From a virus (taxonomy: Duplodnaviria > Caudoviricetes): a stretch of DNA of 54,742 nucleotides. Shown in pieces: positions 26,345 to 51,244 of this stretch; position 1 is the stretch's first letter, and each line of letters starts with the position of its first letter. The DNA lies in IMG/VR virus record IMGVR_UViG_3300037332_000228, positions 1 through 54,742 of that record; one strand, 5' to 3'. The notes under the pieces are model-generated. The model was given only the letters and a program-made list of their open reading frames with translations, made no database searches and had not been told where the DNA came from. The position numbers were made by a program, and so were the translations under genes.

Positions 26345-26421
26345 GTGCTGGTTGAGACCTTGAATAAGACTAGTGGCAATGGATATGTTCAGTATCGCGA
26401 TTGCCTATACCCTTATTTATA
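26345..26421 (-). promoter_or_regulatory. TATAAATA late-type promoter and structured leader of tnpB
   Basis: TATAAATA...GGCAAT-CGC-GATA-ctgaaca-TATC-C-ATTGCC on the minus strand. Confidence 0.65.
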
Positions 26422-26444
26422 TAAAATGTAACTTCGCTCTTAGA

Positions 26445-26490
26445 TGTGCAAATAACACTTGACATGTAGATGTGGATAGCATACAAACAT
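26445..26490 (+). repeat. promoter cassette, copy B1
   Basis: TGCAAATA.CA.TTGACATGT.GATGTG.ATAG, similar to 28114..28160. Confidence 0.65.
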
Positions 26491-26514
26491 GTTAGCAACA
26501 AAGGAATTGATAGA

Positions 26515-28131
26515 ATGGCAACTTTCACAAAATGGATTGACGCACTTGTTTCCGAAAAAGGTATTACTGGACGGACAATTGAAATTCAAGGTGCCAGCGG
26601 TGTTAATCATATGCCATTGGAAGTTGTAATTGACACCATCAAGCAGGCGCCAACGCACGAACAAGCACAAATCAAAAACATATTGATTGCAATTGATTTC
26701 AAGAATGGCGACATCATGCACTTCTTCAAACACCTTGCTGGCGCAATTGCAATTTAATTTTAGGAAGTATTATTATGACAATGATGATTCTAAAGATGGA
26801 AAACAATTCTTTTAACAGCGGCGGGGAATGTGTGTTCTTTGAAATGGCATACAGTCCTTCTCATCACTCTCCCCAACATTTGAAACATGTCATGAACTCT
26901 CATCCAGTCACTATTAAATATCGAGAAATGGGGTATGTAGGGCCTGTCATTGATTCGCAATATTTAAAGTCTTGGGAGCAGGAATACCTAGAAATGCAGG
27001 AAGCATTGAAGATTCCCAGACTTCAACCTAGATTTGCTACTATCTACAAAGAATCCATTATAAATTTACTTCGAGTAAAAGAATTGTATGAAGCCGGTAT
27101 GGTAATTGTTGAATCACATCCTCACTTGACCATTCAGTATGCGACATGGCAGGCTGAAGTGTTCAAATTGAATGATCAAAACAACAAAGAGAAGACAAAG
27201 AATGAAATTAAAAATTAAATGGCATCAAGGAAGTGAATGTCCAGAAAAGTACCAAGCCCAAGTAATCGACGATTTGATTAAAACATGTGAAAGGATGACT
27301 ACCGCCAGTGATCTCCTTGAGCATGTGATTATTTTAACAGATGATTTTGATGGTCCATCCGTATATGCGTATGGCGATCTTGATACTCTACAGTGTACAT
27401 ATTCTGAAAATACACCATGGGAGACACTTAATGAAATGGAAGACTAAATCCAAAATCAAAGAGGGTGAACGACGAACAAGAAAATTGTTTGCGTTCACTA
27501 CAACGGAACTCACTGACGGTAACACAGTGCTGTGGGAAACATATTGGGCACTTGAAGAATTCGCGAGTGGTGGAATGCCTGGTGATTTTTGGGTCATCAA
27601 AAAGACATGGGCAGTGGGAAATTAACATGAGGTGGACTGATGAAATCGGAAATATACTGTTTTCACAGATGCCAGGTGATACGGTAATATTAGACTGGCA
27701 TTCTAACTCTAACCTCGTCCCAGGTGACAAGATTAGAAGGGTATTGGATTGTATGGAAAAGAGAGCAATTATATGTGCAGCTGGACTCGATGAACTCAAC
27801 GAGCTTGAAAAGTTGGCAGTGGAACTACTACTTGATTCGGCATTTTTGAGAGAATATCATGACTGATTTAACATCACTACTGCCCAAACATAAGTCATCG
27901 CTTACTATTATTCACAATGATCACTTGAACTCGTACGAAACGGTTGAATGCTATTTGTCTGCGTTCGGTGACTTTAATAAACACGAATGGTATTCTCAGT
28001 CGGAGTACGACACTGCTGTAGAAACCAACGAACTCTGGGAAATTCACTGGTACCCTGATACCCCGATTAGGTCATATAAAATATATGGGTCAACTTTGGA
28101 AAATGCCCTCAGGTATGCAAATAGTATTTGA
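26515..28131 (+). CDS. cluster of hypothetical proteins (26515..26757, 26775..27218, ~27202..27447, ~27431..27625, ~27627..27866, 27859..28131)
   Basis: Co-oriented overlapping ORFs. Confidence 0.55.
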
Positions 28132-28160
28132 CATGTGGATGTGCATAGTGTATCAACTTA
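28114..28160 (+). repeat. promoter cassette, copy B2
   Basis: TTGACA at 28128-17-TATCAA; similar to B1. Confidence 0.65.
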
Positions 28161-28190
28161 TTAACAAACAAACAAACAAGGATGCACACA

Positions 28191-29000
28191 ATGACAACTG
28201 CAATTAAAATTGAAAAAACAGATGGTCGTATGAAGATTCTCCAGCGTGTTATGAACTTGCGCAACCGTGCAGAAGATGCAGGATCTTCAGAAGCCGAAAT
28301 GCATACTGCATTCACAATGGCCATGAAGCTGATGGATTCATATGGCATCGAAGAAGCAGAGTTGGCAATTGCAGAAGCCAGTGGTGAGATCAAATTGGAC
28401 GTGATCACCAAAGAAGCCAGTACTTCTTTGCGCAAGGGCAAAAGTCAGCTTCACAAAGTATTGAATTGTCTGAATGCAATTGCTGAATTTACTGAAACGC
28501 GGGCTGTATATACCAAACATACTGGGGCGGCAACATTCACAGGGCACCGCCCGGACATTGAACTTGCAGACTTTCTGGTTGCAGTAATCAAGGAAGCAAT
28601 GGATCGTGAATATCATAACTACCGTGCTCGCATGGGGACAGTTGGCAATGGTGCAAAGAACTCATTCCAAACAGCAATGACATACCGAGTAAGTGGTCGC
28701 TTGCGTGAAATGGCAGAGGAGCGTGTTCGTGAACGCCAAACAAACAAAATCAAAGCAGAGCGTCTGAAGATTGAGAATGCAGCAACCTCAACGTCAACTG
28801 CCATTATGGTGTCTGATATTGCAGAGCAGAAAGCCAAAGAAGTAGAGTCTGAATTCAAAATGGCACACCCCCGTCTTCGCACTGTTCGGACAGTTAGTCG
28901 TTCCACTAACTCAACAGCACATGGCGCAGGGTATACCGCTGGTGATCGTGTAAACCTTGGGCGCGCAATTACACAAGGGTCGACCAAGTCACTTGCGTAA
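28191..29000 (+). CDS. DUF2786-type protein
   Basis: L...AED.GSSEAE...A...A.KLM..YGI N-terminus; GY.AG..VNL C-terminus. Confidence 0.7.
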   Translation: MTTAIKIEKTDGRMKILQRVMNLRNRAEDAGSSEAEMHTAFTMAMKLMDSYGIEEAELAIAEASGEIKLDVITKEASTSLRKGKSQLHKVLNCLNAIAEFTETRAVYTKHTGAATFTGHRPDIELADFLVAVIKEAMDREYHNYRARMGTVGNGAKNSFQTAMTYRVSGRLREMAEERVRERQTNKIKAERLKIENAATSTSTAIMVSDIAEQKAKEVESEFKMAHPRLRTVRTVSRSTNSTAHGAGYTAGDRVNLGRAITQGSTKSLA

Positions 29001-29037
29001 TAAATAGGCAACACTTTCATTCAAAAAGGAAAATAAT

Positions 29038-30954
29038 ATGAAAATTGGGATTAGCACGGTCCTCGGCGTTTCGGTAATTGAAATTGATTATATGGAAACC
29101 GCAGATCTCATTACAAGGATTAGTGCAATGGCAGACAGTGATGAACTTGCTCACTGGGGTGGGATTATCACAGACCTGGGTGAACTAGATGATGCAGAGG
29201 AGACTGGCCTGTTTATCACCATGGATCAGGCCAAAGCGGCCATGGTGAAATTGATGAACATGACACACCATAACACATTGAATGATGACGATTTCTTGGA
29301 TGTCTGGCAGAATGATCTGAATCTTTTCTAAATTGCACTTGACAACATGTTGCAAGTTGTGTTATTCATTAGTTGAAATACAGGAGAACGTGATATGCTG
29401 CATGCGATTGATTCAACAGGTTGGGACACATTCACATCTTGGTGTGTCCCAACAGTGATCAGTTTTCTTTCTGGGATTCCTCTGATTCATTCTCACTCTC
29501 GAGCCGCTTTTATCCAAGACAAGACATTAAAGGAAGTTAAGGGCGTATACGCGGCGGAGGCACTGTTGATGCTCAGAGAACAGGGATACAAAGGTGAGAG
29601 AGTTGATCTCAGCAGCCGGTACAATGATGCCCCCAGACTTAAGAAATTTCTCGAAGGTCGTACATCATGGGAGAAGGTCATGCCCCTAATGATTCAAATT
29701 GAGGATTCCAAAGGGTTTTGTCATATGATTGCAAGTCACTTTGAGTATGCCGCTGACAACCATACAATGAAGCCTGTAACAATTGATAAATTCCCACACC
29801 TTAACAAATATGTGACATCAGCTTGGGTTGTGTCAAAACTTTAATGGAGAATACTATGAAACTACTTTTAGGACTACTGGCTATTCTTATGGTTACGTTC
29901 GTGCCATTTGTACTGATCTGGGCGGTGAACACTTTGTTTCCGATTGCTGCCATCCCGTTCACACTTGAGACTTGGTTGGCTGCACTTGTGATCGGCTCCC
30001 TGTTTAGTAAAACCACTTACAGTAAATAATGGAGAACACAATGAATCGACATAAATTGGACGGCAATGCAATTGCAGCAGATGCCCACTATGCACAAACC
30101 ACAGTAGCCGATGATGCAATGAACATTCTCGAAGCACTATCCAATTCAGAATTTGAAGATATTGCACGGGATCTGTCAGATTCTGACGATGATTTTGATT
30201 ATTCTGCACCAGAAGATGCTGTACTTGATTATATCGTTGCCAATATTGGGTTGTTTGTTCCGAACTTTGAAGAATAGTAGATAGCACATGGACAATAAAA
30301 TGACACCACAGTCGCCCGCAGAGGGAATTCTAAAAACTGGTGATTGGGGAGATTCCATATCGTATCATGTTGTATGTGAATGTACGGATGATGATTGCTC
30401 ACACTCAGTTGAGGTTGAAGCAGACGACCATTCAGTCACTGTGTACATCTACACCAATCATCGTACCAAATTTTGGGAGAAATCACGGTGGTCACAGATC
30501 TGGCAAATTCTCACAAAGGGATATGCAGAATACCAAACCACTACTATCATGAGCCAACAGACTGCAATCAATTATTCTGCTGCTCTCACTTCAGCATCAA
30601 ACGATGTAACTGAATTTAAAAGAAAGAGACAAAATGAAACTGTATAAGTATGAAGAAGATTTTGGAAGAATGGGTTCCTTGGATGGTCTGTTCTTTGCAA
30701 CAGACGATGAATACACTTACTTCATGGGTAGAACAATCTGGCAAGGTGATATCCTCGGCAAACATTCACAAATCCAACTTGACTTTGACAAAACCACTGT
30801 AACAGAAGTCAAACTTAGTCAAACTACAATTGACGAGATGTTCGCAGTGTTCGGGTCACATGTTTCTGGGGTTTCACCCTTGTATAATTTTGATCAGTGG
30901 GCAGAGGAAGATGAGGAATCTGATGATGAGGAAGATGAATCAGAAGATGAATAA
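29038..30954 (+). CDS. cluster of hypothetical proteins (29038..29331, 29395..29844, ~29857..30029, ~30041..30277, 30288..30647, 30634..30954)
   Basis: RBS-led co-oriented ORFs; promoter TTGACA at 29339. Confidence 0.6.
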
Positions 30955-31150
30955 AATATTGAGGTTTCTAAAATTATGGGCATTGATTGTTGTGGCCATA
31001 ATTTCATTGTTCGCGGTTGTCATTATATCTATTTCAATAATAGCATGGACTCTACCTGTAATAAATCCATTCAACTGGGCCATGCTGCGACTATTTGTAG
31101 TGTTTGGGTTTATCCTTGCCAGTCTAATATCAGTGATGGATCGGTGTTAA
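30947..31150 (+). CDS. small two-TM membrane protein
   Basis: Hydrophobic ORF overlapping the previous stop. Confidence 0.55.
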   Translation: MNKILRFLKLWALIVVAIISLFAVVIISISIIAWTLPVINPFNWAMLRLFVVFGFILASLISVMDRC

Positions 31151-31163
31151 TAGGAAAAATGAC

Positions 31164-31428
31164 ATGATAATTAATTGGTGTAAAGTTGGAGCCGCGCTTG
31201 AAAGGTCCTTTTTGCCTGTCCTAGGGTTTTTGGTATTAATACTGATTCTAATTTTTTCTATGGTTCGTTTCACTTTTTATCTTTGTCGTAGTATGGGTGC
31301 TGTCCACGTGGCTTGTGCCAACCATGCCTGTTCTCATGATTAAAATAGTGACGGGAGTCATCAGTCTGTTCATTGGTGTAAATGCATTTGTGATTTGGTA
31401 CAAGCTTTTCGTTCATTGGGATGGTTAA
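31164..31428 (+). pseudogene. small membrane protein frameshifted in a T6 run (31252..31257)
   Basis: Removing one T gives a continuous hydrophobic ORF MIINW...LILILIFLWFVSLF...HWDG. Confidence 0.55.
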
Positions 31429-31534
31429 ATTATCAATGACTGACGGTTACTACTATATTATTACTTGACACCACGTTATTGATTATAATATAATATAGTA
31501 TGTGGACATTACTCAATGAAATAGGATACATGAC

Positions 31535-31762
31535 ATGCCCAGTGATACAAATTTTCTAGATTCATTCAATCGAGCGTTAATCATTGCCATCAGTCTAAAA
31601 TTCTTGTTAGTGGGATTGGCACTTTTTGTATTTTACAGTTGTGTTTTTGTCTTGATTCTGTCTGTATTCATTCAATCACAGATCATACTGAATGTAATCA
31701 CTGCAATTGTTATAATCATTAATGCAATAATTGCTGTTCTTTGCCTGTGTATTTTGGTATGA
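31535..31762 (+). CDS. small membrane protein
   Basis: Hydrophobic ORF with AGGA RBS. Confidence 0.55.
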   Translation: MPSDTNFLDSFNRALIIAISLKFLLVGLALFVFYSCVFVLILSVFIQSQIILNVITAIVIIINAIIAVLCLCILV

Positions 31763-31871
31763 ATACACAACGGGTCGTCGTTGAAATATACCAAGTAATA
31801 TGTGCATAGCTAATGCGAATTGAGTCAATATTAAAGAACTATTCAGAAATGCAATTCAAAGGATAAAGGCA

Positions 31872-32834
31872 ATGACTAAATTTAAGAAATTTACCTCAAT
31901 TGAGAAGTTTTCAGATGTATGGGCTAAGGCCCAGAAATACAATGTTGGCAAAGTACAACTACGATCCAAGATAAAACTGCATGGGACTAATGCAGGCGTC
32001 CGTATTGTAGACGGGGTGTTTACTGCGCAGAAACGTACCAGTGACATTACTCCACTCTCTGACAATGCAGGGTTTGCATTCTGGGCATCAAACATCCAAT
32101 GGAAAACAAAACAGGACGTGATCATGTATGGTGAATGGGCCGGACCAGGTGTACAAAAATCGGATGCAATCTCACTTATTGATCGCAAACGATTCTTTGT
32201 GTTTGGTATTTTGATGCTGGACGTTGATGAAGACAAAAACAACTACATTATTTGTCCTGACATCATTTCCAAATATCTACCTGACGATCCAAATATCATG
32301 AGCATCCCTTGGCATGGGGAACCCATGTTGCTGGACAGTGACAATGTGGGGACAGCCAGAGCAATCCAAACCATAGTTGAAGAGCAGGTTCACGCAATCG
32401 GCGATGAAGATCCGTATGTAAAAGAACAGTTTGGTATTTCTGGAGTCGGCGAGGGTCTAGTCATTGCTCCCTATAATGAATCGGGAATTATCAACCAGGC
32501 TTACTATAATACCTATGTCTTCAAAGTAAAATCAGAAGCGCATATGGTTAAGAAAACCAAGTCTGCTGCTCACATCCAAACAGAAGTACCAGATTCAGTA
32601 AAGAACTTTGCCCGAGACTTTGTCACTGATGTGCGTTGCCAACAAATGATCGACGAATATTGTGAAGGATCAATGTCTCCCAAGTCAATTGGTACATTTC
32701 TAAAGAATATCAATGCAGATATCCTGAAGGAGTCAACTAATGAGCTTGCGGGCATGGATGTTGAATGGAAGCAAGTAGCAAAGGAAATTAACAAGCGGGC
32801 GCTATCCTGGTTCCAAGAACAGAATCGAGTTTGA
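31872..32834 (+). CDS. RNA ligase, Rnl2-like
   Basis: Motif I KLHGTNA, YGEWAG, GEGLV and FKVK nucleotidyltransferase motifs. Confidence 0.8.
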   Translation: MTKFKKFTSIEKFSDVWAKAQKYNVGKVQLRSKIKLHGTNAGVRIVDGVFTAQKRTSDITPLSDNAGFAFWASNIQWKTKQDVIMYGEWAGPGVQKSDAISLIDRKRFFVFGILMLDVDEDKNNYIICPDIISKYLPDDPNIMSIPWHGEPMLLDSDNVGTARAIQTIVEEQVHAIGDEDPYVKEQFGISGVGEGLVIAPYNESGIINQAYYNTYVFKVKSEAHMVKKTKSAAHIQTEVPDSVKNFARDFVTDVRCQQMIDEYCEGSMSPKSIGTFLKNINADILKESTNELAGMDVEWKQVAKEINKRALSWFQEQNRV

Positions 32835-32861
32835 ATCCAAATTCATTGCTGGATTCAAACT
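32828..32861 (+). terminator. hairpin at end of RNA ligase gene
   Basis: AGTTTGAATCCA...TGGATTCAAACT. Confidence 0.55.
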
Positions 32862-32958
32862 GATAAATAGTGTTATAATGAATTTGACTGCATATATATA
32901 TCATCTTGGTGAGTTCAAGAACCAGTCAGATCAAAAATCACACAAGGAAACAATCGTA

Positions 32959-34044
32959 ATGTGGTCACCTCAGCAAGAACTTGGCTTGAAAAGTGTAGGC
33001 GTATGGTATCATTCGCTTGATCGCAAACAGGTATTTAAGGTGCTGGGATACGCAGGAACAGGCAAAACTACTTTGGCCAAGCATTTTGCATCCTTGATTA
33101 ATGGCGAAGTGCTTTATGCATCATTCACTGGTAAGGCCGCGTTGGTATTGAGAAAAGCCGGATGCCATGGTGCGACCACCATCCACAGTTTGATATACAA
33201 ACCTGTAAAGAATGAGTTTGGTGTACTGGAATTCTCTATCAACAGAAATTCATCACTCAAAGATGCCGCATTATTGATCGTGGATGAATGCAGTATGGTG
33301 GATGATGAATTAGGCAAGGATCTATTGAGTTTTGGTATTCCCATTCTTGTACTGGGAGACCCTGCGCAACTACCTCCCCCTGGCGGAACTGGGTTCTTTA
33401 CTGAGGGGGAGGGAGACGTCATGTTGACAGAAATCCATCGCCAAGCAGAAGATTCCCCAATTATTCATCTTGCCACTAGTGTGAGAAACGGTGTTATCCC
33501 CAAATTAGGCGAGTACGGTACCAGTAAGATCGTCAATGACGTATCAGCTGATGAGTTCATGCAGTATGACCAAATGATTGCCGGTAGGAACATCACACGG
33601 TCATCTTTGAATGCCATGCACCGTGAAGCATTGGGAAGAGAATCCGTATTTCCAGTAACTGGAGATAGACTGATCTGTCTCAAAAATAAACCAAAGATGG
33701 GACTGTTCAATGGCGGAATGTTTGAAGTTCTAAAAACAACCAAAACCAAATCCAAGATGTTCAAGCAATATACCATTAAGAATCTGGACACCCCTACCCA
33801 AGCAGCGTTTCAGGTCAAAGTACATGATTCATTCTTTACTGGGACCGAAAAGCCAAATTGGAAGACTCTTACTGGATCTCAAGAATTTGATTTTGGATTC
33901 TGTATTACAGCGCACAAATCACAAGGTTCACAGTGGGATTCAGTACTGGTATTTGATGAAAGTTATTGCTTCAGAGACGACAAGTTCAGATGGCTATATA
34001 CTGCTATTACTCGGGCATCTGAGCGTGTTACTATCTATCGTTGA
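32959..34044 (+). CDS. Dda/RecD-like SF1B DNA helicase
   Basis: GYAGTGKTT, TIHS, VDECSM, GDPAQL, LTEIHRQ, TAHKSQGS and YTAITRA motifs. Confidence 0.9.
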   Translation: MWSPQQELGLKSVGVWYHSLDRKQVFKVLGYAGTGKTTLAKHFASLINGEVLYASFTGKAALVLRKAGCHGATTIHSLIYKPVKNEFGVLEFSINRNSSLKDAALLIVDECSMVDDELGKDLLSFGIPILVLGDPAQLPPPGGTGFFTEGEGDVMLTEIHRQAEDSPIIHLATSVRNGVIPKLGEYGTSKIVNDVSADEFMQYDQMIAGRNITRSSLNAMHREALGRESVFPVTGDRLICLKNKPKMGLFNGGMFEVLKTTKTKSKMFKQYTIKNLDTPTQAAFQVKVHDSFFTGTEKPNWKTLTGSQEFDFGFCITAHKSQGSQWDSVLVFDESYCFRDDKFRWLYTAITRASERVTIYR

Positions 34045-36658
34045 CTCTATACATTGTAGATCCGATATGATCACATCTAATAGAGCTATCGGCCCATATT
34101 TTAAATCCTTGATCGAGTGCCTTTTCACAAAAATATATGTCCTCACTTATAGTATTTTCTGAAGTCAATGCACTCTTATATAGATAATGTGGATACTTTA
34201 TAAGTTGAAAGACCTTTGATTTTATCAGACAGCATCCCATCCCACATCCTACTATTTCAAACTGCGTATCCTTGGGTAATTCATCAAGGTGGATGTTAAT
34301 GGATCCGCCAGTCTGAGTTCTCTTATATATCTCCAATGTGTGAGTATTTGGTATTCGTTGTATATACAATCCGGATATGATGTCTTTGTCTGCTGAGATC
34401 ATTTTGGTCAGACAGTCCTTTGGTAATACAATGTCAGAATCAACTGACAACAAATAATCATAATCCAACGACCATTTGGCAATTAGATTTCTAATTTGGT
34501 CAATCTGATATCCATGAAAAAATTGAAAGTCAGTTGAGTATCCATCTGGAATTTCCAGATCATATATTGATTTCATAGTTTCAGGCTCAATATATCTATT
34601 AGTGGGGATTGCTATCAATATGGTTTTTTTCTTCGTAGTGGGCTGATATGATGTCATTGCGTTTTTATTTTGCTCCTGGCCATTTATTTTATAATCATTA
34701 ATGGGATTGATGTCATTGTATATACATACTATTTCTTTATTGCAGTATATTTTGTCAGTTGGTACTTGTTCGATTAATTCATAGAACAATGGGTTATCTG
34801 CTCCCGACTGCATATATTCTCCTGACTCAGTCATGAATTTTACATGATCCAAGGTTTGAAAATACTTGGCAATACATGTCCTCAAGTGAGTGTAAGGTAT
34901 TTTCCAATTGAAAAGATGTGCTCTATATGTTTTATTCTGCTTAACTTCGTCTGGGTATTCTTGTGCAACCAATGGGATCTGGTCTGCAAGACTAAACATA
35001 CTGCCATAAGTGTATTCATATCCTTGATCACATAGATCATTATAATAATGAAATAATGTGTTATTGTTGACCAGCCAGTCGTCCCCATCCAATAACATCA
35101 CCAGAGTATCTTCAGTCGTTCTCCCACTTGACACCATGCGGTTTACAGTGATCAATTGATTGTAAACTGCTCCTTGCCTTTTATTATTTTTAATCAATAT
35201 GAATTTATTTTGTATTTCTTTGGGCAGAGCGGCGATGGTGTCTTTGGCGATGATCCACCCTTCATCAGTGGAATTGTCGTCTATCAATACATGTTGGTAA
35301 GATTCATAATTCTGTTGGGCAACTGACAGGATATTCTTTTGGATGAAATCGGCTGCATTATAGAAGGGGCTTATCACCAGCAGAGGCTTCTCAGAAACGT
35401 ATGAGTGGTATTTTGTGTACGCGGGCATAGTATTACATCTACCGAACACGCGGGCCACTTTATCGTTAATCTTAGATACTGTTCGATACTCTGCCCTTGA
35501 CAAGAATTCTCCCATGATGCCATATATGAATTGTTTCCATTGCAGTGCAACGGTGTCCCACGTGGTAATATCATGAACAACTGAGCAATAATTTTGCTTT
35601 TGTTGATGTAAATATGGGGTATGATATGCAGTTATGACTTGCTCAACAAATTTAGCTACCTGTTCATCATGGTCAATGTCAGGGAATAAAGAATTTGGTT
35701 CAATTGCATAATTGATTTTATAACATGCCATGTCAACTGCGGTTTCTTCCAGTGCACCAAATCTAGTCGTGACAATTGGAGTATTGTACAATAATGATTC
35801 AAGACTTGATATTCCAAACGTTTCTGGAAATGCACATGGATACAGCATCATGTTGGCCTTGGCTAAAATTTTAGCCACTTGTTGCTGTGAGATAATCCCA
35901 GTAAATTCAATACCAGACTGGGCAATATCCGCTGCGTTCATGAGTTCACGAACTATTTGCTCTTGTGCATCTGGGCCGGTGGGAAATTCATAGTACCCTC
36001 CCAATATTAATAATCGTGCCTCTGGTATCTGTTTTTTAATTTCTGGCCAAATTTTGTGTACCAGAGGGATCATTCCCTTGGTGGCGCTGGAATTATACAC
36101 AAATAGATTGGGGTCCTTGTCTGCAATGCGTACATCATTTAGATACTTGACTGCTCCATTCCTCGTTTGAAATATGGATTTCTTCAAGACTTCATAATTT
36201 CTACGTGGGCCTTTGTGATTTGCGTTCAAAATATATGAAGTGTGCCAGTCCGAAAGGGTAAGTACATGATCAATTGTGCCATCCACAATCAACTGTTCCA
36301 TTAAATGGTCACCTTGAATAAACGTGTCATGTAACCATAACATTCTTTTGGTTGCAAACTTTACAAAAGGATGAGAATCAGTAATAAACGGAATTACAGT
36401 CCTTGATACAACCACTACGTCATATATCTCATTGTGTTCTGTTGCCTGTGAGTTGTCTATATATTCAACTCCAGAGTATGTGCCGGGTGAACAGTCTTCA
36501 CCGGATTGGCAATTATTGAAGACTGTGACCTCAAACCCTTGCTTGTATAACTCATTCGCCATGAGAATTACTGCTGATTCTGATCCGCCCAGCCCACGTG
36601 TCTTTAGGGTGTAGCCGTCATATGACAGTCCCATGGTGTCTATTATTGCGATTTTCAT
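34031..36658 (-). CDS. multidomain glycosyltransferase (GT-B/GT4 plus two GT-A/GT2 domains)
   Basis: GLGGSE and ETFGISSLE (GT4); SPFYNA..IDDNSTD..LDGDDW (GT2); SVDSDIV..GMGCCLI..SEDIYFC (GT2). Confidence 0.88.
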   Translation of the reverse strand: MKIAIIDTMGLSYDGYTLKTRGLGGSESAVILMANELYKQGFEVTVFNNCQSGEDCSPGTYSGVEYIDNSQATEHNEIYDVVVVSRTVIPFITDSHPFVKFATKRMLWLHDTFIQGDHLMEQLIVDGTIDHVLTLSDWHTSYILNANHKGPRRNYEVLKKSIFQTRNGAVKYLNDVRIADKDPNLFVYNSSATKGMIPLVHKIWPEIKKQIPEARLLILGGYYEFPTGPDAQEQIVRELMNAADIAQSGIEFTGIISQQQVAKILAKANMMLYPCAFPETFGISSLESLLYNTPIVTTRFGALEETAVDMACYKINYAIEPNSLFPDIDHDEQVAKFVEQVITAYHTPYLHQQKQNYCSVVHDITTWDTVALQWKQFIYGIMGEFLSRAEYRTVSKINDKVARVFGRCNTMPAYTKYHSYVSEKPLLVISPFYNAADFIQKNILSVAQQNYESYQHVLIDDNSTDEGWIIAKDTIAALPKEIQNKFILIKNNKRQGAVYNQLITVNRMVSSGRTTEDTLVMLLDGDDWLVNNNTLFHYYNDLCDQGYEYTYGSMFSLADQIPLVAQEYPDEVKQNKTYRAHLFNWKIPYTHLRTCIAKYFQTLDHVKFMTESGEYMQSGADNPLFYELIEQVPTDKIYCNKEIVCIYNDINPINDYKINGQEQNKNAMTSYQPTTKKKTILIAIPTNRYIEPETMKSIYDLEIPDGYSTDFQFFHGYQIDQIRNLIAKWSLDYDYLLSVDSDIVLPKDCLTKMISADKDIISGLYIQRIPNTHTLEIYKRTQTGGSINIHLDELPKDTQFEIVGCGMGCCLIKSKVFQLIKYPHYLYKSALTSENTISEDIYFCEKALDQGFKIWADSSIRCDHIGSTMYRVNDR

Positions 36659-36758
36659 TGATTTTCCTATGAGTTCAATTAATTCAAATTGAGTATTGAG
36701 TTCATACTGATAGTTATCATGGAAAATAATGATCTTTTCAACAGTTTGAATTATTTTC

Positions 36759-36787
36759 TTGACTATTAATTAGATATATAGTAGAGT
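36759..36787 (+). promoter_or_regulatory. sigma70-type promoter facing the ORF-free structured region
   Basis: TTGACT-17-TAGAGT. Confidence 0.5.
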
Positions 36788-36794
36788 AATAATT

Positions 36795-40277: not shown

Positions 40278-40284
40278 ATTCTAG

Positions 40285-40313
40285 TTGACAGTTAGATACT
40301 ATTACAATATCAT
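40285..40313 (+). promoter_or_regulatory. sigma70-type promoter of the topoisomerase operon
   Basis: TTGACA-17-TATCAT. Confidence 0.65.
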
Positions 40314-40335
40314 AAGAAAAATTTAAGGAACTAAG

Positions 40336-42165
40336 ATGCTCGAAGAATTTAAGATACTATCACCAAGGGACCACGTACGACAACGAATGGGGTTGTATTT
40401 GGGATCAAGTTCCATGGAATCAGTAGAGAGATTCGTACGAGGAAAATGGGAAACAACCAAGTATGTGCCTGCCTTGAACAAAATAATTGATGAAATATTG
40501 GATAATTCAATTGACGAAGCCATACGAACTGAATTCAAGCATGCCAATAAAATTGACGTATCTATCTCAGGTGAATGGGTTACAGTTACTGATAATGGCC
40601 GAGGCATACCTCAGGACGAAATATATGACTCTGCTTCGGACGAGTATATCAAACGACCTGTTGCTGCATGGACTAGAGTAAATGCGGGTACCAGCTTCAC
40701 TGAGGACCGTGTTTCAATCGGTGCGAATGGAGTTGGATCGTCATGTGTGAATTTCGTAAGTTCTGAATTCCAAGGCGAAACATGGTGTAAAGGTACCATG
40801 GTGAAAGTTTATTGCACTGATGGTGGCCTTGAAGTCAAAGTCATTGAAATGCCCCGGTCAGGATCAGGTACCAAAGTATCATTTACTCCAGACTTTGAAT
40901 TGTTTGAAACTGATAGTCTTGTCAAACATGACATTTGGAATTTAGTCGAAGATCGCGTCATGAGTTTACAACTGGCATTTCCGGAAATTACATTCAGTTT
41001 AAATGGCAAACGAGTACAAGTGAATACTTTGAAAAAGTATTCAGAGTTGTTTAGAAACAATGAAAATGATTCTGTGGTCGTGGCACAAACTGACACGGTG
41101 TCATATTTCATTACTTCATCTGAGGATGGATTTAGAAGTAACAGTTTTGTAAATGGAGTTAATACTCGACAAGGTGGTACATATGTGGACTGGATGACAA
41201 ATTCCTTAGTGGATGAACTCACCAGCATGATCAAACGAAAATTCAAGATTGAAGTTACCAAGAGCACCATCAAGAGTGGCCTGACCTTTGTGCTGTTTTC
41301 CAGAAACTTTACAAATCCAAAGTTTGACAGTCAGACCAAAGAACGTTTGACTAACACGGTGGGAGCAGTCAAGGAGCATTATGAGTCATCCGGTGCCATG
41401 GACTTTGTGACAATGGGCCGCAAGATCATGGCATCCGAAGATATCATTGGCCCCATTGTGGAGGCACAACTTGCAAAGAAGTTGGCAGCAGATAAACGAG
41501 CAGCAACATTGGCTCAGAAGAAACTCAAGAAAGTCAAAGTGCCCAAGCATGTTGCTGCCAATGGCAAAAATGCCACATGTATGTTAGTCGAGGGGGATTC
41601 AGCTATTTCTTCATTTTTAGAAGTAAGAAACAAAGATATGTTGGGGGGCTATCCTCTTCGTGGCGTAGTGATGAACACATGGGATATGAAACCAGCCGAC
41701 GTACTAAAGAACAAAGAACTGAGTGAATTAGTGTCAGTATTAAATCTTGACATAACCCATCCAGACAGCTACAAAGACATGTCGTACCAAGACGTGGCAA
41801 TTTTTGCGGACCCAGATCATGATGGTGGCGGCCATATTTGTCCACTACTTATTGCATTCTTTTATAAATTCTGGCCTGGATTGATCCTGGATGGTAGGAT
41901 AAAGATAACTCGGACTCCGATTATGATATCCACTAATGGTAAGAACACAGAATGGTTTTACACTTACAATGATGCACAAGCATTCAAGGCAACATCAAAA
42001 GGATATAGTCACAGATACATCAAGGGACTGGCCAGTCTAGTCAATGATGAATATGAAAAAATAATTAATAATCCAATCAATGATGTAGTCAACATGGATG
42101 ATGCACAATGCTTTCAAATTATGTTTGGCAATGATCCAGAACTCAGGAAAGAATACCTAACATGA
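40336..42165 (+). CDS. DNA topoisomerase II large subunit (T4 gp39+gp60 fused)
   Basis: EILDNSIDE, DNGRGIP, GANGVG, FDSQTKERL, VEGDSA, PLRG, D.D.DG and YIKGL motifs. Confidence 0.95.
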   Translation: MLEEFKILSPRDHVRQRMGLYLGSSSMESVERFVRGKWETTKYVPALNKIIDEILDNSIDEAIRTEFKHANKIDVSISGEWVTVTDNGRGIPQDEIYDSASDEYIKRPVAAWTRVNAGTSFTEDRVSIGANGVGSSCVNFVSSEFQGETWCKGTMVKVYCTDGGLEVKVIEMPRSGSGTKVSFTPDFELFETDSLVKHDIWNLVEDRVMSLQLAFPEITFSLNGKRVQVNTLKKYSELFRNNENDSVVVAQTDTVSYFITSSEDGFRSNSFVNGVNTRQGGTYVDWMTNSLVDELTSMIKRKFKIEVTKSTIKSGLTFVLFSRNFTNPKFDSQTKERLTNTVGAVKEHYESSGAMDFVTMGRKIMASEDIIGPIVEAQLAKKLAADKRAATLAQKKLKKVKVPKHVAANGKNATCMLVEGDSAISSFLEVRNKDMLGGYPLRGVVMNTWDMKPADVLKNKELSELVSVLNLDITHPDSYKDMSYQDVAIFADPDHDGGGHICPLLIAFFYKFWPGLILDGRIKITRTPIMISTNGKNTEWFYTYNDAQAFKATSKGYSHRYIKGLASLVNDEYEKIINNPINDVVNMDDAQCFQIMFGNDPELRKEYLT

Positions 42166-43490
42166 AATATCAAGAAACCTCGCGGCCCTACAAACTATCC
42201 GATTTGACTAATAATGAATGGCGAGAATTTGCATTATACACTATTGCTCATCGAGCCATACCAAATATGTACGATTCACTGAAACCAGTACAGCGATTCT
42301 ATTTATATTCATCATTGATTAGCTCAATGAAAGAATTCAAGAAAGTGTCGAGTATATCAGGTTCACTCAGTAACCATGGTTATAACCATGCTGAAGCAAG
42401 TGGGGCGTCTGCTGGTAAACTCATGGCGGCAAAATGGTATAATAATATTTGCCTAGTCGAAGGCAGAGGGGCATTTGGTACTAGGCTCATTCAATCCCAA
42501 GGCGCGGATCGTTATGTGTATACCAGAGTTCATCCAAATTTCAACAAATACGTCAAGGATTTGGATCTTAGTCCAACGCACTCTGATCCGGAGCATGAAC
42601 CTCCTGCATTCTATTTGCCTGTTATTCCACTTGTTCTTGTAAATGGCACCAAGGGTATTGCCACGGGGTTTGCCACAAATATTCTACCCCGTAGTGTCAA
42701 GCATATTGTTGCGGCATGTGAAGAATATGTGAAGACAGGCAAAATTAATCAATCATTACCAATTAGTTTTCCTGAGTTCTCGGGAACTACGGTATATGAT
42801 GTAGAAGCTGATCGTTACGTTTCAGAAGGAATTTATACACGACCATCAAAAACCAGGATTGTAATTGAGGAGGTACCATATGGGTTTGACCGAGAAGGGT
42901 ATATCAAGATTTTAGACAAGCTGGAAGATGCGGGTGAGATCGTTGGGTATGATGACTTGTGTGACAGTAATGGGTTTGGGTTTGATGTCAAACTCAAAAA
43001 TGTAAACTCATCCTGGAAGCATGAAGACATCATAAAGCATTTCAAGCTTACCAAGACACACAGTGAAAACTTGAATGTAATTGATGAGAATAACAAGCTT
43101 AGATCATATTCTGATGCCCGAGACTTGGTCAAGGATTTCTGCAATTTTAGAAATGGTATTTTGCAAAAACGTATCGACTTACGGATCAAAGAATTACTGG
43201 AAGAAGTCAGATGGCTAACAGTTAAAATGCAATTTATTCAGGCAGTAATTGATAACAAAATTATTTTCAAGAATAAAAAGAAACAGTTGGTAGTGGATCA
43301 GATCATTGCAGTCACTGATGCAATTGATGCGGATTGTGACCGATTGTTGAGAATTAACATCATGAGCTTGACTGATGAAATGGTAAAAGATCTCATGGCT
43401 CAGCAAAAAACCGCAGGCCAGAGTCTGTTGTTTTGGCAAGCAACCACAGTAAAGGCACAATTCCTTTCAGACCTCAAAGAAATAAAATAA
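42162..43490 (+). CDS. DNA topoisomerase II medium subunit (T4 gp52-like)
   Basis: RAIPN..D.LKPVQR, catalytic ADRY and LVNG..GIATGF motifs. Confidence 0.95.
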   Translation: MKYQETSRPYKLSDLTNNEWREFALYTIAHRAIPNMYDSLKPVQRFYLYSSLISSMKEFKKVSSISGSLSNHGYNHAEASGASAGKLMAAKWYNNICLVEGRGAFGTRLIQSQGADRYVYTRVHPNFNKYVKDLDLSPTHSDPEHEPPAFYLPVIPLVLVNGTKGIATGFATNILPRSVKHIVAACEEYVKTGKINQSLPISFPEFSGTTVYDVEADRYVSEGIYTRPSKTRIVIEEVPYGFDREGYIKILDKLEDAGEIVGYDDLCDSNGFGFDVKLKNVNSSWKHEDIIKHFKLTKTHSENLNVIDENNKLRSYSDARDLVKDFCNFRNGILQKRIDLRIKELLEEVRWLTVKMQFIQAVIDNKIIFKNKKKQLVVDQIIAVTDAIDADCDRLLRINIMSLTDEMVKDLMAQQKTAGQSLLFWQATTVKAQFLSDLKEIK

Positions 43491-43552
43491 CACTTGCGGG
43501 TTGATCAAAAATCAACTAAAGTAACTTTACATTGTAATTTAGGAGAACTTCA

Positions 43553-44138
43553 ATGGCCAAAGGTAAATCATCCAGTGCAAAAGGTATTCAGTCAGCTGGT
43601 ATCCATCGCGCAGTATCTCGCGCGACTACTCAATTGATCCGAAAAGGATATCGCGCCAGCGGTGAACGAGTCACTAACCAACGTAATGCGTTTGACTCTG
43701 GAAAGCGTGTCATGGTAACCATTCCAAATCCAAATCCCAATGAGACTAATAAATTGTTCATTCGGGTGTCGGCCAAGGACGCAAACTGGAAGCCCAAAGA
43801 ATTCAAGAAAGGTGCCTAAGGCAAAGGCATCTAAATCCATTAGATTACAGCAAGCCAGAGCAGAACAGGTGCTCTGGCTTGCTAGATATGGGATTGATGG
43901 GACTAAAAAACCAAAAATAAAATCTCAGGTAAATTCATTGCCCAATCTCAAAGTCAAATCAAATGGTGTGGACATGGGTAATCAAGTTGCCACTCATGGT
44001 ATTGCAAAATGTATAAATAGATATACAGGCGACGAACTTATGGGAATAGGCCTGGTCCATAAAAGTGGATATGCTCCCATTAGAAAAGATAACCCCCAGT
44101 CAGCTAAAGATTTGGCCAATATGCGCCGATCAACATAA
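43553..44138 (+). CDS. two basic hypothetical proteins (43553..43819, ~43812..44138)
   Basis: VTIPNPNPNETNK.FIRV and YTG..L.GI...HKS motifs, typical of T4-like phage hypotheticals. Confidence 0.65.
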
Positions 44139-47127: not shown

Positions 47128-47128
47128 A

Positions 47129-47443: not shown

Positions 47444-47445
47444 GA

Positions 47446-48372: not shown

Positions 48373-48374
48373 TC

Positions 48375-49594
48375 ATGCAAACCCCTGTCATTACTTATAA
48401 TGTATTGCCGAGAGAATTTAAGAAAACGTTCACTGTACTTGCTCATGAATATAGACTGGATTCAAAAATAATTGGGTACCTTGATCAATTGCAGTCCAGT
48501 TCTCTGAATGATTCACTGGATCTAGAGATTGATGTACGGGCAGACGGTGAGCCTGATAATGATGTAATTATAAAACTCATCAGTATAACATCACAGAAGG
48601 TTATCAAATATATATCACCGCCGACGACTTCCCCCCAGGTTACTGTATTACCTTCACAGGCACCGGCACAGTATCAAATGGTTGAAAAAATCGAGACTCA
48701 ACATGTTGATACAGTGACTGCTAAAATTTTCGTTTCGTACTCTTTCCTAAGTAACAGATACATGCATCCAGATTTCTATGTTCGATCATGGGATCTGTTG
48801 GCCAGACACATTGCAGCAGGCATTTATCTTGAATATTCAAATTTTTGCGATGAATATGATTTGACTGGAGTACACGAATTCTATCATAACGGTAAATGGT
48901 TGAATAATGAAGAGTATAGGACCGAAATGATTGCACAAGAAACCAATCGTATTATATATGAATCTGACTTGGTTTTAGTTACATGAATCTATTTAGTGGA
49001 ATTGACTTGCATATTGTTGTAAATGATCATAAACTAACAGATGACATAACGGTAACACATGGATCTCCTGCTACGAACGGACGTATTATGTACCTTACAC
49101 AAATTGATTATGATAAATTGAAAGAACAAAGTAATGACATCACAAGAAACAAATGAAGCCAAGAGAAATATTGAAACTGGTTATTATATTATACGAGTCC
49201 CATTTCCAGACGAGGGACTGTGGACATATCTCACTGTTACCAGCCATTCTGGCGAAATGTTGTTGCGTAAGTTTTATGACATTACAATGGCGAATAAAAT
49301 AGCCGCACAATATACAGGCGCCCAAGTGATATTTAAAGAATTATGAGGATCAATTTCTCAATTCTTAATAAAATAGATGAAACTGCACCTGTGACAATTA
49401 CCCGCACAGAGTATAATGAATACCAATGTATGAAAACAACTAGAGACCGAGAAACTGCTAGAATTCGAGAATATATTCTTATCAAGTCTGTTTGTTCATC
49501 TTGCGGTGTACAAAGCATGGATATTTATCCCGATTTGGGCAATATGTGTAGTGGCACTTGGTGCGAAGGCAGTATGATTTCACTAAAAAATTAA
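48375..49594 (+). CDS. hypothetical proteins (48375..48986, 49134..49346, 49343..49594)
   Basis: Co-oriented ORFs; the last has CxxC motifs. Confidence 0.55.
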
Positions 49595-49606
49595 AGGAAT
49601 AAGGTA

Positions 49607-50206
49607 ATGGCAAGTAGACTTCAAATGATGAACAAGAAAGGACTTGTTCATCCACCAAGATGGTTACCACAAAATGTACATTACGAAGTAATCACGGGAT
49701 CGGTGAGTTACGGTGCCTCGAATGATTCATCTGATATGGACATTGTGGGAGTTGTTATCCCGCCCAAAGAAGACATATTCCCCCACTTGAAGGGTGAAAT
49801 TCCAGGATTCGGTAGGCAAATCAAGAAGTTTGAACAATATCAGGAACACCACATCAATGACAACGATACTGGCAAGGAATATGACTTTACGTTTTATTCT
49901 ATTGTCAAATTCTTTAACCTTGCAATGGAAAACAATCCAAATATTGTTGATATTTTGTTTACCCCACAACAATGTGTTCTTTTTGCATCTCAGGTTGGCC
50001 AAATAATCAGAGACAACCGAAAGATCTTCCTCCACAAAGGCTCATATCAGAAACTGAGAGGGTATTCCTATGCCCAATTACATAAGATTGGCACCAAATC
50101 CATCCCCATGCCCGACAATATATCAGAAATTCTTTCTAAAATCGACAAAAATGATCTTAAATTGATCGATCAAGAAAAGATTAGAAGGGTATCTGAACAA
50201 CAGTAG
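49607..50206 (+). CDS. YcgL/RlaP-type nucleotidyltransferase, N-terminal fragment
   Basis: GSVSYG...SD.D..G, D..Y...KF and NPN..D.LF motifs. Confidence 0.85.
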   Translation: MASRLQMMNKKGLVHPPRWLPQNVHYEVITGSVSYGASNDSSDMDIVGVVIPPKEDIFPHLKGEIPGFGRQIKKFEQYQEHHINDNDTGKEYDFTFYSIVKFFNLAMENNPNIVDILFTPQQCVLFASQVGQIIRDNRKIFLHKGSYQKLRGYSYAQLHKIGTKSIPMPDNISEILSKIDKNDLKLIDQEKIRRVSEQQ

Positions 50207-50207
50207 T

Positions 50208-51158
50208 CTACATTCTTAAAGGCTTTGTCTTCCCCAGCCGCCAACCATCAGTGAGATACTCATCTACTTTTTCTGGTTGTACTCTTTTATTTTTGCCATC
50301 TTTCGTGATGGTTATAATACCCTTGCAATTGGATCCAACAGTCCAACCATCAGTGAGATACTCATCTACTTTTTCTGGTTGTACTCTTTTATTTTTGCCA
50401 TCTTTCGTGATGGTTATAATACCCTTAAAGCATTCACTTCTAAGCTTCCTTAATTCTGGATTATTAATATATGATTGCTTAACTGATTCACTCGAAGACA
50501 GTGCCCGCTCTCTTTTTTCTTTGTCGGTCAACCCATCCCATGAATCTTTTCCTTTTTGTGATCTTTCTTCTCTTTGGGACTCGGTTATATTTTTCTCTTC
50601 TTCAATACGACGAAGACTGGTGTTTTTCGAATGAGATTGTAGTTTCGGAGATGTTTTCCATGATTCTTGTTTTTTCTGCTTCATGGCTTTTCTAAATTCG
50701 TTATCCCAGTTCTCGGATATAGTCTTTAGTCTCTTATCATTTATTTCTGGTTGTTTATTTTTAATTATTGACTTCCAGTATTCAGTTTGAGAGATGTTTG
50801 TTATTCCATCACCATATAAAAGCTCAGTTATAAATTTATTTTTGTCAGAATCAAAAATGAAATCGTTGTTATGCATATTATAAAAATCAATATTCTTCCT
50901 GGCATTCACTTTTTTTAGAAATCTTGTTTCATAGTCGACCGCGGCTCGACCATCTTCGAATATTTTAATTTTTCTAATCTTGAATGAGTCAATTCCGTTT
51001 TTCTTGATTATATTTTTGATAGTATTAGATGATGTATTATACCCATCTAATTTTAATAATTCCTCCGGATCGCAGTCCTTGATCCATCTTGCTCCGGCAT
51101 AATACATGCCGTTGCTGGTATCTTGTAAGATATAGAAATATGGGGCATAAATATACAT
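50208..51158 (-). mobile_element. free-standing GIY-YIG-like homing endonuclease inside the nucleotidyltransferase gene
   Basis: N-terminus closely paralogous to 38788..40209 (PYFYILQ..NGMYYAG, Y.TSS, IRKIKIF, FYN.H.ND). Confidence 0.8.
50241..50426. repeat. identical 84-bp direct repeat, 102-bp period
   Basis: 50241..50324 equals 50343..50426; encodes KGIITITKDGKNKRVQPEKVDEYLTDGW twice. Confidence 0.95.
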
Positions 51159-51244
51159 ATGCTGTGTTCCTTTTGCAAAATTTAAACATAGAGTGGGCAG
51201 GTTTCGACCAAGTCACCGTGGCCCACAATGTAATTCTATTTACC
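51159..51244 (-). promoter_or_regulatory. TAAATA late-type promoter and structured leader
   Basis: GTGGGC-CAC-GGT-loop-ACC-T-GCCCAC on the minus strand. Confidence 0.6.

Follow-up and report, generated by a model that had tools for sequence, protein, structure and literature searches.

In silico analysis of the virus record IMGVR_UViG_3300037332_000228 (hereafter the window, i.e. the whole 54,742-bp record, with a G+C content of 40%) revealed that three minus-strand nuclease genes, namely tnpB and two homing-endonuclease-like genes, carry in their leaders one conserved, covarying structure which is common to unrelated selfish nucleases and is part of a cassette of 80-95 bp. The conserved secondary structure belongs to the antisense strand rather than to the mRNA. 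Judging from its distribution, the cassette appears to be a portable one, travelling with the free-standing homing-endonuclease genes of uncultured T4-like phages and, in this phage, also standing before tnpB. As to its function, we propose, with about even confidence, that the cassette specifies a late cis-antisense small RNA, having an anti-Shine-Dalgarno loop and a terminator-like 3' hairpin, which limits translation of the nuclease.

Three related leaders in the window

The initial annotation had described a hairpin before each of these genes, and that observation is confirmed. On the minus strand, hairpins lie at 26375-26405 (before tnpB) and at 40232-40266 and 51193-51226 (before the two endonuclease genes), each comprising a 6-bp outer stem, a C-R-C bulge (CGC, CGC and CAC, respectively), an inner stem of 4, 4 and 3 bp and an unpaired pyrimidine (C, C and T), with TAAATA upstream and AAGG before the ATG at all three sites. 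The spacer between TAAATA and the stem is 8, 3 and 10 nt, and the sense octamers are TATAAATA, AATAAATA and GGTAAATA. While the leader with its AAGG was borne out, the distance from hairpin to ATG, given earlier as 20-35 nt, measures 30, 19 and 34 nt, with AAGG outside the hairpin.

A chance likeness of three unrelated hairpins had to be considered, as the bare shape is frequent in the window (8 sites on the plus strand and about 10 on the minus strand, thus about 18 in the contig) and TAAATA is not enriched there (19 and 14 occurrences found vs. 24 and 19 expected). However, requiring the C-R-C bulge with an opposite pyrimidine left 6 window sites, of which 3 have TAAATA upstream, and these are exactly the three originally described. 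A MAFFT alignment of eight early copies misaligned two of them, so a covariance model (R1) was built from six, with the tnpB copy and the 51193 copy excluded from training. When the window was searched with R1 on both strands with filters off, the held-out tnpB copy ranked 2nd (30.1 bits, E 0.0019) and the 51193 copy 3rd (19.1 bits, E 0.24). With both held-out sites recovered, at least 217 relatives showing covariation and 7 matches in a 596-Gb control collection (see below), we consider chance likeness to be already refuted. Neither R1 nor the model R2 found a copy at the glycosyltransferase gene (34031-36658) or at a plus-strand GIY-YIG gene (21759-23093).

Two other identities for the hairpin were rejected by inspection of the sequence: a kink-turn, as there is no tandem G.A beside the bulge, and an RNase III site, as the helix is only about 10-11 bp long. 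Elsewhere on the plus strand, at 20908-20948 before the ORF 20945-21721, a small hairpin taking in GAGG and the ATG comes after an exact TATAAATA; scoring only 14-15 bits with R1 and R2, it lies outside the cassette family.

Anatomy of the cassette

Read toward the nuclease gene, the cassette comprises (N)NTAAATA, a spacer of 3-5 nt and seldom more, the hairpin described above (hairpin B), a TCTAA-like linker, a short stem showing the Shine-Dalgarno sequence, CAGC and the ORF start ATG-NNT-ATT-TAT, which is present in every copy and encodes M-x-I-Y. The reverse complement of this start is NATAAATA-NN-CAT, a second late-promoter-like motif in the opposite direction, so that 7-nt inverted repeats bracket the whole cassette; likewise, the nuclease proteins begin with M-x-I-Y because ORF codons 2-4 make up the antisense-facing NATAAATA-type motif. 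Among cassettes recognised by linker and tail, ATAAATANNCAT is found in 199/209, and it is also found in 6/6 copies identified by the hairpin descriptor alone. Here and below, cassette tallies (n = 97, 104, 209, 210, 216 and 217) refer to copies among the matches listed, in which cells were counted and the copies are related by descent. The M-x-I-Y start is imposed on GIY-YIG, HNH, TnsA-like and other proteins as well as on TnpB. Non-coding constraint thus reaches into the ORF and sets the first four residues of the protein.

In the T4 late promoter, an 8-bp TATA box precedes the start by about one helical turn, the octamer spanning -13 to -6; A(-13) is the commonest variant (9/50 sites), and late transcripts run in both directions (PMC2988020). 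Cyanophage late promoters have been given as NATAAATA (PMC2984593). On the sense side of the cassette, the motif is NATAAATA or NNTAAATA in 90/104 copies from scan 2 (below). This octamer lies 3-10 nt upstream of the stem, with a commonest spacer of 5 nt (49/104) at which a T4-type late start would be the first stem base. In a complete cassette-bearing genome, 39/79 ATAAATA words sit 5-80 nt upstream of a same-strand ORF start vs. about 5 of 79 expected there by position alone, an estimate made from window fractions; in two cassette-bearing genomes, the 120 nt upstream of gp23 contain no ATAAATA. The cassette has no -35/-10 pair, and the sigma-70-like promoters nearby fall outside the conserved unit. 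After hairpin B, the tail on the antisense strand reads A-Y-U-U-W-U-W-U-U-U-A; TAAATA is absent in 14/104 cassettes, several of which carry plain U runs.

The three window copies follow this plan. Copy 1 extends over both strands from the antisense to the sense octamer, at 26332-26421 before tnpB (51.2 bits with R2 on the plus strand). Its TATAAATA facing tnpB (26414-26421, minus strand) is an exact T4-type late-promoter octamer, by sequence and the promoter geometry of PMC2988020. On the plus strand, a strand assigned from the family-wide counts of G.U vs. A.C given below, hairpin B (26375-26405) has two bulged G around one base pair, followed by the U-rich tail. Also on this strand are the predicted 5' part of the antisense RNA (26345-26374), which by R2 alignment and folding includes hairpin A and the complement of the tnpB AAGG (26358-26361), and a second TATAAATA (26332-26339), formed by tnpB codons 2-5 (M-S-I-Y-K), which by its motif is a candidate antisense promoter.

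Copy 2 (40197-40277, both strands), before the gene for the 474-aa endonuclease, scored 57.0 bits with R2 and 47.5 bits with R1. Toward the endonuclease gene it has AATAAATA (40270-40277, minus strand), which is the T4 late octamer in its A(-13) variant, and, on the plus strand, hairpin B as seen by folding (40232-40266) with its U-rich tail at 40267-40281, a predicted hairpin A (40210-40231) in which a 7-bp stem with G.U pairs holds a pyrimidine-rich anti-Shine-Dalgarno loop, and another AATAAATA from endonuclease codons 2-5 (M-T-I-Y; 40197-40204). Copy 3 (51146-51244, both strands; R2 53.7 bits), before the gene for the 316-aa endonuclease, comprises GGTAAATA, a late octamer matched at 6/8 positions that faces the gene (51237-51244, minus strand), and, again on the plus strand, hairpin B (51193-51226), the predicted 5' part of the antisense RNA with hairpin A (51159-51192, from folding) and CATAAATA from codons 2-5 (M-Y-I-Y; 51146-51153). 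Plus-strand folding gave -19.9 kcal/mol for 26345-26421 (z -1.85), -15.3 kcal/mol for 40210-40281 (z -1.83) and -20.5 kcal/mol for 51159-51244 (z -1.64), and the sense leaders of copies 1-3 gave z -1.33, -0.62 and -0.24.

Covariation and the strand of the fold

Compensatory change, which had been claimed from the three stems, is now seen on a much larger set, with both hairpins covarying strongly. In an alignment of 100 sequences (A5) compared with 500 shuffles, 95.8% of cells were paired vs. 74.0 +/- 0.7 in the shuffles and 31-59% in slid controls, and the covariation score was 0.624 vs. 0.204; 0/500 shuffles reached either observed value, and double changes occurred in 13/17 pairs.

The departures from Watson-Crick pairing tell on which strand the structure is kept. 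Read on the nuclease strand in 95 cassettes, the outer stem has 10 A.C and no G.U, while the middle position of the so-called bulge is G-C in 61, A-U in 13, A.C in 21 and G.U in 0. A parse of 217 cassettes in the antisense orientation, treating G.U and A.C alike, counted, over the ten core pairs of hairpin B, 79 G.U and no A.C; its middle pair is G-C in 137, G.U in 49, A-U in 31 and A.C in 0. Because this middle position pairs, hairpin B forms, on the antisense strand, an unbroken helix from which two G bulge out singly. Hairpin A exists as an 8-bp hairpin on the antisense strand only, with one G.U that is invariant (210/210) and G.U in 51 and 65 vs. A.C in 0 and 1 at the next two positions, and its loop has CUCC, UCCU or CCUU (anti-Shine-Dalgarno) in 147/210 cassettes. 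The antisense fold is the more stable one in 90/97 cassettes (mean -17.4 vs. -12.8 kcal/mol), whereas control windows from the same loci split 154 to 133. Since the non-Watson-Crick pairs are G.U on the antisense strand and A.C in the leader, the structure evolves as an antisense-strand fold. The balance of G.U vs. A.C can therefore overturn what seems an obvious strand assignment of a structure. Of the cis-regulatory RNA under common phage control that was initially suggested, a common element with the appearance of late-phase control stands, but its assignment to the sense leader does not.

These counts bear directly on a different interpretation, in which transcription from a late promoter gives the nuclease mRNA a 5'-terminal stem-loop, and this stem-loop either stabilises the message or controls how it is translated; on read-through transcripts, the octamer may in addition pair with codons 2-4 and hide the start codon, by the logic of I-TevI and Aeh1 mobE. 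The 5-nt spacer, which would put a T4 late start on the first stem G (PMC2988020), favors such a sense leader, as do the two octamers, which are exact 7-nt inverted repeats that RNAalifold pairs with each other. Dassa et al. (2009; PMC2677866) have read hairpins in endonuclease 5' untranslated regions (UTRs) as translational regulators, and the plus-strand GIY-YIG gene at 21759 has the classical form of this arrangement. However, in a sense leader the 79 core positions of hairpin B, together with hundreds in hairpin A, would be A.C mismatches and never G.U, the reverse of the pattern expected if a sense fold were under selection. Moreover, hairpin B is clear of the Shine-Dalgarno sequence and wholly inside the late transcript; the helix between octamers is not extended by covariation (46 pairable vs. 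47.8 expected), finding no support at its eighth pair, where no covariation was seen; and the sense folds in the window have the weak z values given above. A small sense hairpin does cover part of the Shine-Dalgarno sequence but is weak, the tail folding with 0 to -4.4 kcal/mol. We regard the sense leader as a rather unlikely explanation of the cassette.

Distribution of the cassette and the genes that follow it

To what extent is this cassette found outside of the window? A first scan of IMG/VR used the pattern TATAAATA-N5-G-N5-CRCG...ATGNNTATTTAT, fixing the octamer, a few bulge bases and the ORF codons without demanding any pairing; it gave at least 120 matches, and 95 of the 97 unique copies among those listed had the hairpin, with varied stems. 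The same pattern gave 7 matches in 596 Gb of prokaryote genomes, all of them on contigs of metagenome-assembled genomes. In a second scan, with the antisense side alone fixed, at least 120 matches were again obtained, including 104 new unique copies among those listed, with hairpin B in 104/104. A descriptor pass over the fetched loci brought the total to at least 217 unique cassettes, and further copies in distant T4-like contigs stand before NUMOD3-bearing ORFs. The 7 prokaryote-collection matches (L340-L346) lie on short contigs assigned to unrelated phyla and are probably misbinned phage contigs.

Several copies can occur in one genome, with 4 in a 349-kb genome, 7 in a complete 210-kb genome, 5 in a 139-kb fragment and 3 in the window. 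No copy is present in two related genomes of 221 and 183 kb that are complete or nearly so, and R1, when run on 803 kb of loci chosen by their topoisomerase or a neighbouring ORF, recovered only its own 4 training copies. The cassette thus tracks endonucleases and not the phage backbone.

We compared 92 distinct proteins encoded downstream of cassettes with PHROGs and Pfam. PHROGs assigned 57 to phrog_314 (homing endonuclease), 33 to phrog_655 and 12 to an HNH family, and the Pfam matches comprised NUMOD3 (29), GIY-YIG (9), HNH (6), SegE_GIY-YIG (5), HNH_3 (4), DUF7487 (3) and TnsA-like (2). The genes that follow the cassette are therefore mostly homing endonucleases, of several folds. At four loci (L150, L170, L214 and L227), an intact cassette is followed by an ORF of 13-37 aa only; either the endonuclease gene has decayed there, or the cassette persists without an endonuclease.

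The cassette has no matching family in Rfam 15, as indicated by the lack of any match at gathering score across the whole window and by a permissive scan of two cassettes that returned chance-level scores of 16-18 bits vs. cut-offs of 40-97. We put slightly short of even confidence in a broader proposal, namely that T4-like phages have a widespread, uncatalogued family of portable 'governor' cassettes, in which a late antisense RNA is matched to the leader of its own nuclease. In this proposal, the cassettes would be exchanged among at least five nuclease folds (GIY-YIG, HNH, TnsA/Vsr-like, others and TnpB), stamping M-x-I-Y on each; the copies would be mutually orthogonal pairs of antisense RNA and mRNA; and a TnpB with the cassette would be regulated, and would perhaps behave, like a homing endonuclease.

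A putative late antisense RNA

On the antisense strand, the conserved unit begins exactly with a promoter-like motif and ends with a terminator-like hairpin, which gives it the appearance of a small-RNA gene. In the mechanism that we propose, two convergent NATAAATA motifs bound the cassette, with the outer one facing the nuclease gene and the inner one located in codons 2-4. The inner promoter would fire late in infection to yield an antisense RNA about 60-85 nt in length. At its 5' end, hairpin A, with its 8-bp stem and invariant G.U, would display the anti-Shine-Dalgarno sequence in its loop, and at the 3' end hairpin B, with two bulged G and the U-rich tail, would act as the terminator. 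By geometry, the region from the inner motif to hairpin B is the exact complement of the UTR, covering the Shine-Dalgarno sequence and the AUG, and an mRNA started at the outer promoter would accordingly find in the putative RNA the full complement of its 5' UTR, Shine-Dalgarno sequence and AUG. Pairing of the two would limit nuclease translation and might trigger mRNA decay. The M-x-I-Y start would be a by-product of housing a promoter in codons 2-4, and since the RNA would be carried within a mobile cassette, control would move together with the nuclease. The complementary sense hairpin, at the very start of the late mRNA, may play a role of its own alongside this.

Several observations weigh against this proposal. 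Promoter activity of the two motifs, an RNA end at hairpin B and repression by the RNA are features that we infer. Neither octamer is the strict T4 consensus: the sense octamer varies (in scan 2, GATAAATA in 28, TATAAATA in 21, ACTAAATA in 16 and CATAAATA in 10 of 104), and the first base of the antisense octamer is A in 56, T in 49, G in 35 and C in 6 (n = 146). The terminator looks weak because A residues interrupt the tail, and a simple consensus terminator scan did not call the tail of hairpin B. Being rich in G+U, the antisense strand is favored in folding by itself, the mean z being -1.72 vs. -1.09 for the sense strand. Most cassettes were retrieved with patterns that fix one octamer, and the copies are not phylogenetically independent. 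A single cassette used as a blastn query found no match among cultured phages, and R2 had no match at E <= 1 in the whole genome of cyanophage S-PM2. Finally, the structure may have a role on the sense strand, given that the 5-nt spacer would place a hairpin at the 5' terminus of the mRNA.

Strand asymmetry and a U-rich tail would fit equally well with a terminator or insulator of the antisense strand and nothing else. Here, hairpin B and its U tail would stop transcription running in the antisense direction, e.g. early transcripts of a host operon that holds a backwards-inserted nuclease gene, with no small RNA and no repression. All three window cassettes indeed lie backwards in the early-gene strand, and behind each of them, on the plus strand, the next gene has a sigma-70-like promoter (the best in its region, TTGACA-17-TATCAT, is at 40285-40313); by crude ORF calls, the upstream neighbour is on the opposite strand in 112/216 cassettes. 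However, the same crude calls give 70/216 cassettes the orientation of their upstream neighbour, from whose side no host transcript would then reach them, and an insulator would leave unexplained both the ATAAATANNCAT inside the ORF (199/209) and the covarying hairpin A with its anti-Shine-Dalgarno loop. We consider this alternative unlikely.

TnpB as an unusual passenger

In contrast to the homing endonucleases, TnpB shows little connection to the cassette outside of the window. OrfB_IS605 (TnpB) is not among the 10 Pfam families matched by the 92 downstream proteins, and the cassette was found at 0/80 other phage TnpB loci. Three of the best 120 TnpB representatives start with M-x-I-Y, two of which are 93% and 83% relatives of the window TnpB. 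Because neither the other TnpB loci nor the downstream proteins show a link, tnpB is to be viewed as an unusual passenger on a homing-endonuclease cassette. A number of more distant relatives (P0004-P0027 and P0070, 54-65% identical to the window TnpB) begin in many cases with M-S-L-F-I-(R/K)-S-Y-K-Y-R, a start that by codon choice could hold a TATTTATA word in another frame.

The ends of IS200/IS605 elements bear imperfect subterminal hairpins, and it was conceivable that the cassette is a DNA-level signal, i.e. a single-stranded DNA hairpin serving mobility or recombination, either as an IS200/IS605-like TnpA end or as a cassette-shuffling site. DNA hairpins also tolerate G.T pairs, the cassette lies at the border of inserted DNA, and its junction with unrelated ORFs falls exactly after codon 4, suggesting recombination there. 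Nonetheless, no second hairpin like that at 26375-26405 was found at the other end of tnpB, be it in 24400-26800 or in window-wide shape scans, and, with the cassette absent from the other phage TnpB loci and OrfB_IS605 from the downstream proteins, the hairpin is not an IS200/IS605 end. The earlier suggestion of a shared mobilisation end was thus not upheld, the more so as the more than 200 homing-endonuclease-type genes headed by the cassette have no IS features. A DNA signal would also assign no role to the promoter-like, anti-Shine-Dalgarno and U-tail features, and we deem it very improbable. The 3' flank of tnpB (24450-25096), the expected site of a guide (omega) RNA and of the right end, is overlapped by the plus-strand ORFs 24623-24877 and 24765-25088, and no end hairpin was seen there.

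Gain and loss of cassettes with their genes

Comparison with the related IMG/VR contig G001, which shares 92-97% identity with window 24029-51555 and has none of the three cassettes or of their genes, suggests that the cassettes are mobile together with the nuclease genes. In place of window 38808-40461, which covers the endonuclease gene, its leader and ~126 nt at the start of the topoisomerase gene, G001 has 175 diverged bases, and in place of window 50097-51426 it has 59 bases. Instead of the tnpB segment (24453 to ~26448), G001 has a different 340-bp module, and the same repeated early promoter/UTR cassette flanks both the tnpB segment and the replacement module. G001 has a fourth copy elsewhere, preceding an endonuclease paralogue of its own that is divergent to the homologue of window gene 28182-29000. 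This copy has the outer stem of window copy 2, an inner stem that is different and still paired, and the 3' flank of window copy 3.

The gene starts beside the two endonuclease cassettes (40336-40461 and 51315-51426) are strongly diverged from G001 over their first 110-130 nt, while the remainder of each gene is 96-97% identical; from their sequence, these diverged tracts look like co-conversion tracts left by homing. The repeat that flanks tnpB resembles the promoter early stem-loops (PeSLs) of T4-type phages, and joins a terminator hairpin and its T run to an early promoter of the TTGACA type and a conserved UTR that ends in AGCAACAAAGGAAT; its window copies are at 24343-24450 and 26450-26515 (plus strand), and in G001 its two copies (locus L086, reverse complement, 815-930 and 1265-1345) lie on either side of a different ORF, of 102 aa. 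Such paired copies suggest module swapping by recombination between repeated cassettes.

Relation to known systems and significance

The closest precedent is provided by Dassa et al. (2009; PMC2677866), who described hairpins in 15/16 endonuclease 5' UTRs at 'fractured gene' loci of marine metagenomes, 10 with TATAAATA, and two conserved motifs complementary in the stem; these were read as mobE-like sense hairpins that sequester the ribosome-binding site, and at one locus the hairpin may persist where the endonuclease gene has been lost. Compared by text only, these hairpins resemble our cassette in that they, too, occur in DNA of uncultured T4-like phages and precede endonuclease ORFs belonging to several families, while the available excerpts of that paper make no mention of the M-x-I-Y codons, the motif on the other strand, the second hairpin, the strand-specific wobble or TnpB.

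A second group comprises T4 I-TevI, I-TevII, I-TevIII, segB and Aeh1 mobE, in which, according to Edgell, Gibb and Belfort (2010; PMC2988022), late promoters lie inside hairpins that sequester the ribosome-binding site; an odd case is seg43(25) of Aeromonas phage 25, whose hairpin precedes the ribosome-binding site without sequestering it. From what these excerpts describe, the cassette has in common with I-TevI, segB and mobE a T4-type late-promoter motif directly upstream, an RNA structure near the gene start and the presumed purpose of keeping a selfish nuclease low or late. It has the upstream late octamer of this group, but it neither sequesters the Shine-Dalgarno sequence or start codon nor has the late start inside the hairpin: whereas the I-TevI-type hairpin covers the ribosome-binding site and contains the late start, hairpin B lies 19-34 nt upstream of the ATG within the late transcript, and, in a further difference, the fold of the cassette is kept on the other strand. 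The window does contain a classical arrangement of the T4 I-TevI/mobE type. At 21730-21770 (plus strand), before the GIY-YIG gene 21759-23093, CATAAATA is directly followed by a 9-bp hairpin with the Shine-Dalgarno sequence in its loop and the start codon in its 3' arm. As this gene has no copy of the cassette, the phage uses two designs for its endonuclease genes.

The logic that we propose for the cassette is that of RNA-OUT against RNA-IN in IS10. In that system, convergent promoters bracket the 5' end of the transposase gene, and RNA-OUT is a short, stable stem-loop antisense RNA with stem irregularities that covers the ribosome-binding site and start codon. The cassette differs in four respects: 1) its putative promoters are of late-phage and not of sigma-70 type; 2) it has two hairpins; 3) it is swapped among unrelated nuclease genes; 4) it is known from sequence alone. 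The first antisense RNA to be reported in T4-like phages, according to a review (PMC2984593), is CfrI of cyanophage S-PM2, which runs opposite a homing-endonuclease gene; as described there, CfrI is about 225 nt long and extends into psbA, unlike the cassette, and since R2 has no S-PM2 match, we consider CfrI an analogue and not a member of the family. The PeSLs of T4-type phages are cassettes of an early sigma-70-type promoter and a terminator (PMC4122927) and, like our cassette, are small conserved promoter-terminator composites at the borders of variable genes, implicated in module shuffling; in the available excerpts of that work, they are not linked to late promoters, endonucleases or antisense RNA, and the PeSL-like unit of the window (~24343-24450) is distinct from the cassette. 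In a literature search limited to listings, abstracts and the excerpts cited here, we came across no report of a cassette of this kind, with an antisense RNA directed at homing endonucleases.

The selfish nucleases found in phage genomes are mainly homing endonucleases and TnpB, and, to our knowledge, how phages restrain them is known just for a few T4 and Aeh1 genes. If our proposal is true, one cassette, present in hundreds of uncultured phage contigs and not in Rfam, would represent a general, gene-borne restraint of selfish nucleases, and, through its antisense RNA, homing endonucleases would for the first time have a conserved small-RNA family linked to them. The cassette would also offer many natural, orthogonal pairs of antisense RNA and leader for engineering. 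A TnpB plugged into the regulation of homing endonucleases would bear on the idea of TnpB as a homing-type nuclease.

Genomic setting

By PHROGs annotation, the contig appears to be part of the early region of an uncultured T4-like phage, with rIIA (90-1736), a Dda-like helicase (32878-34044) and the topoisomerase II large (40336-42165) and medium (42162-43490) subunits. The plus strand carries nearly all long ORFs; those on the minus strand are tnpB, a glycosyltransferase gene (34031-36658) and the two endonuclease-like genes. TnpB (25097-26344, minus strand; 415 aa) matches Pfam OrfB_IS605, Cas12f1-like_TNB and HTH_OrfB_IS605 as well as phrog_506. The first homing-endonuclease-like gene (38788-40212, minus strand; 474 aa from the ATG at 40212) matches phrog_12434 (HNH endonuclease) and phrog_37840, and the second (50208-51158, minus strand; 316 aa) matches phrog_314; neither is in G001. 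Both had initially been called GIY-YIG-type. They do share an N-terminal domain of ~100 aa that is 54% identical between them, but the Pfam GIY-YIG match of that domain is below the cut-off (E 0.005-0.013).

No close cultured relative of this phage was found. Among cultured phages, window 24000-44000 had no megablast match and rIIA no tblastn match, and the 316-aa endonuclease and one common cassette-linked endonuclease gave weak partial matches only; for the topoisomerase, no match in the phage collection exceeds 47% identity. Searching IMG/VR with each of the three nuclease proteins singly gave almost no matches, and relatives were obtained via the topoisomerase, a neighbouring ORF and the motif scans. 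Between the glycosyltransferase gene and the divergent next gene on the plus strand, a region of about 1 kb (36659-37673) has no ORF of at least 50 aa and no Rfam match, and it lies within a block that is 97.5% identical in G001.

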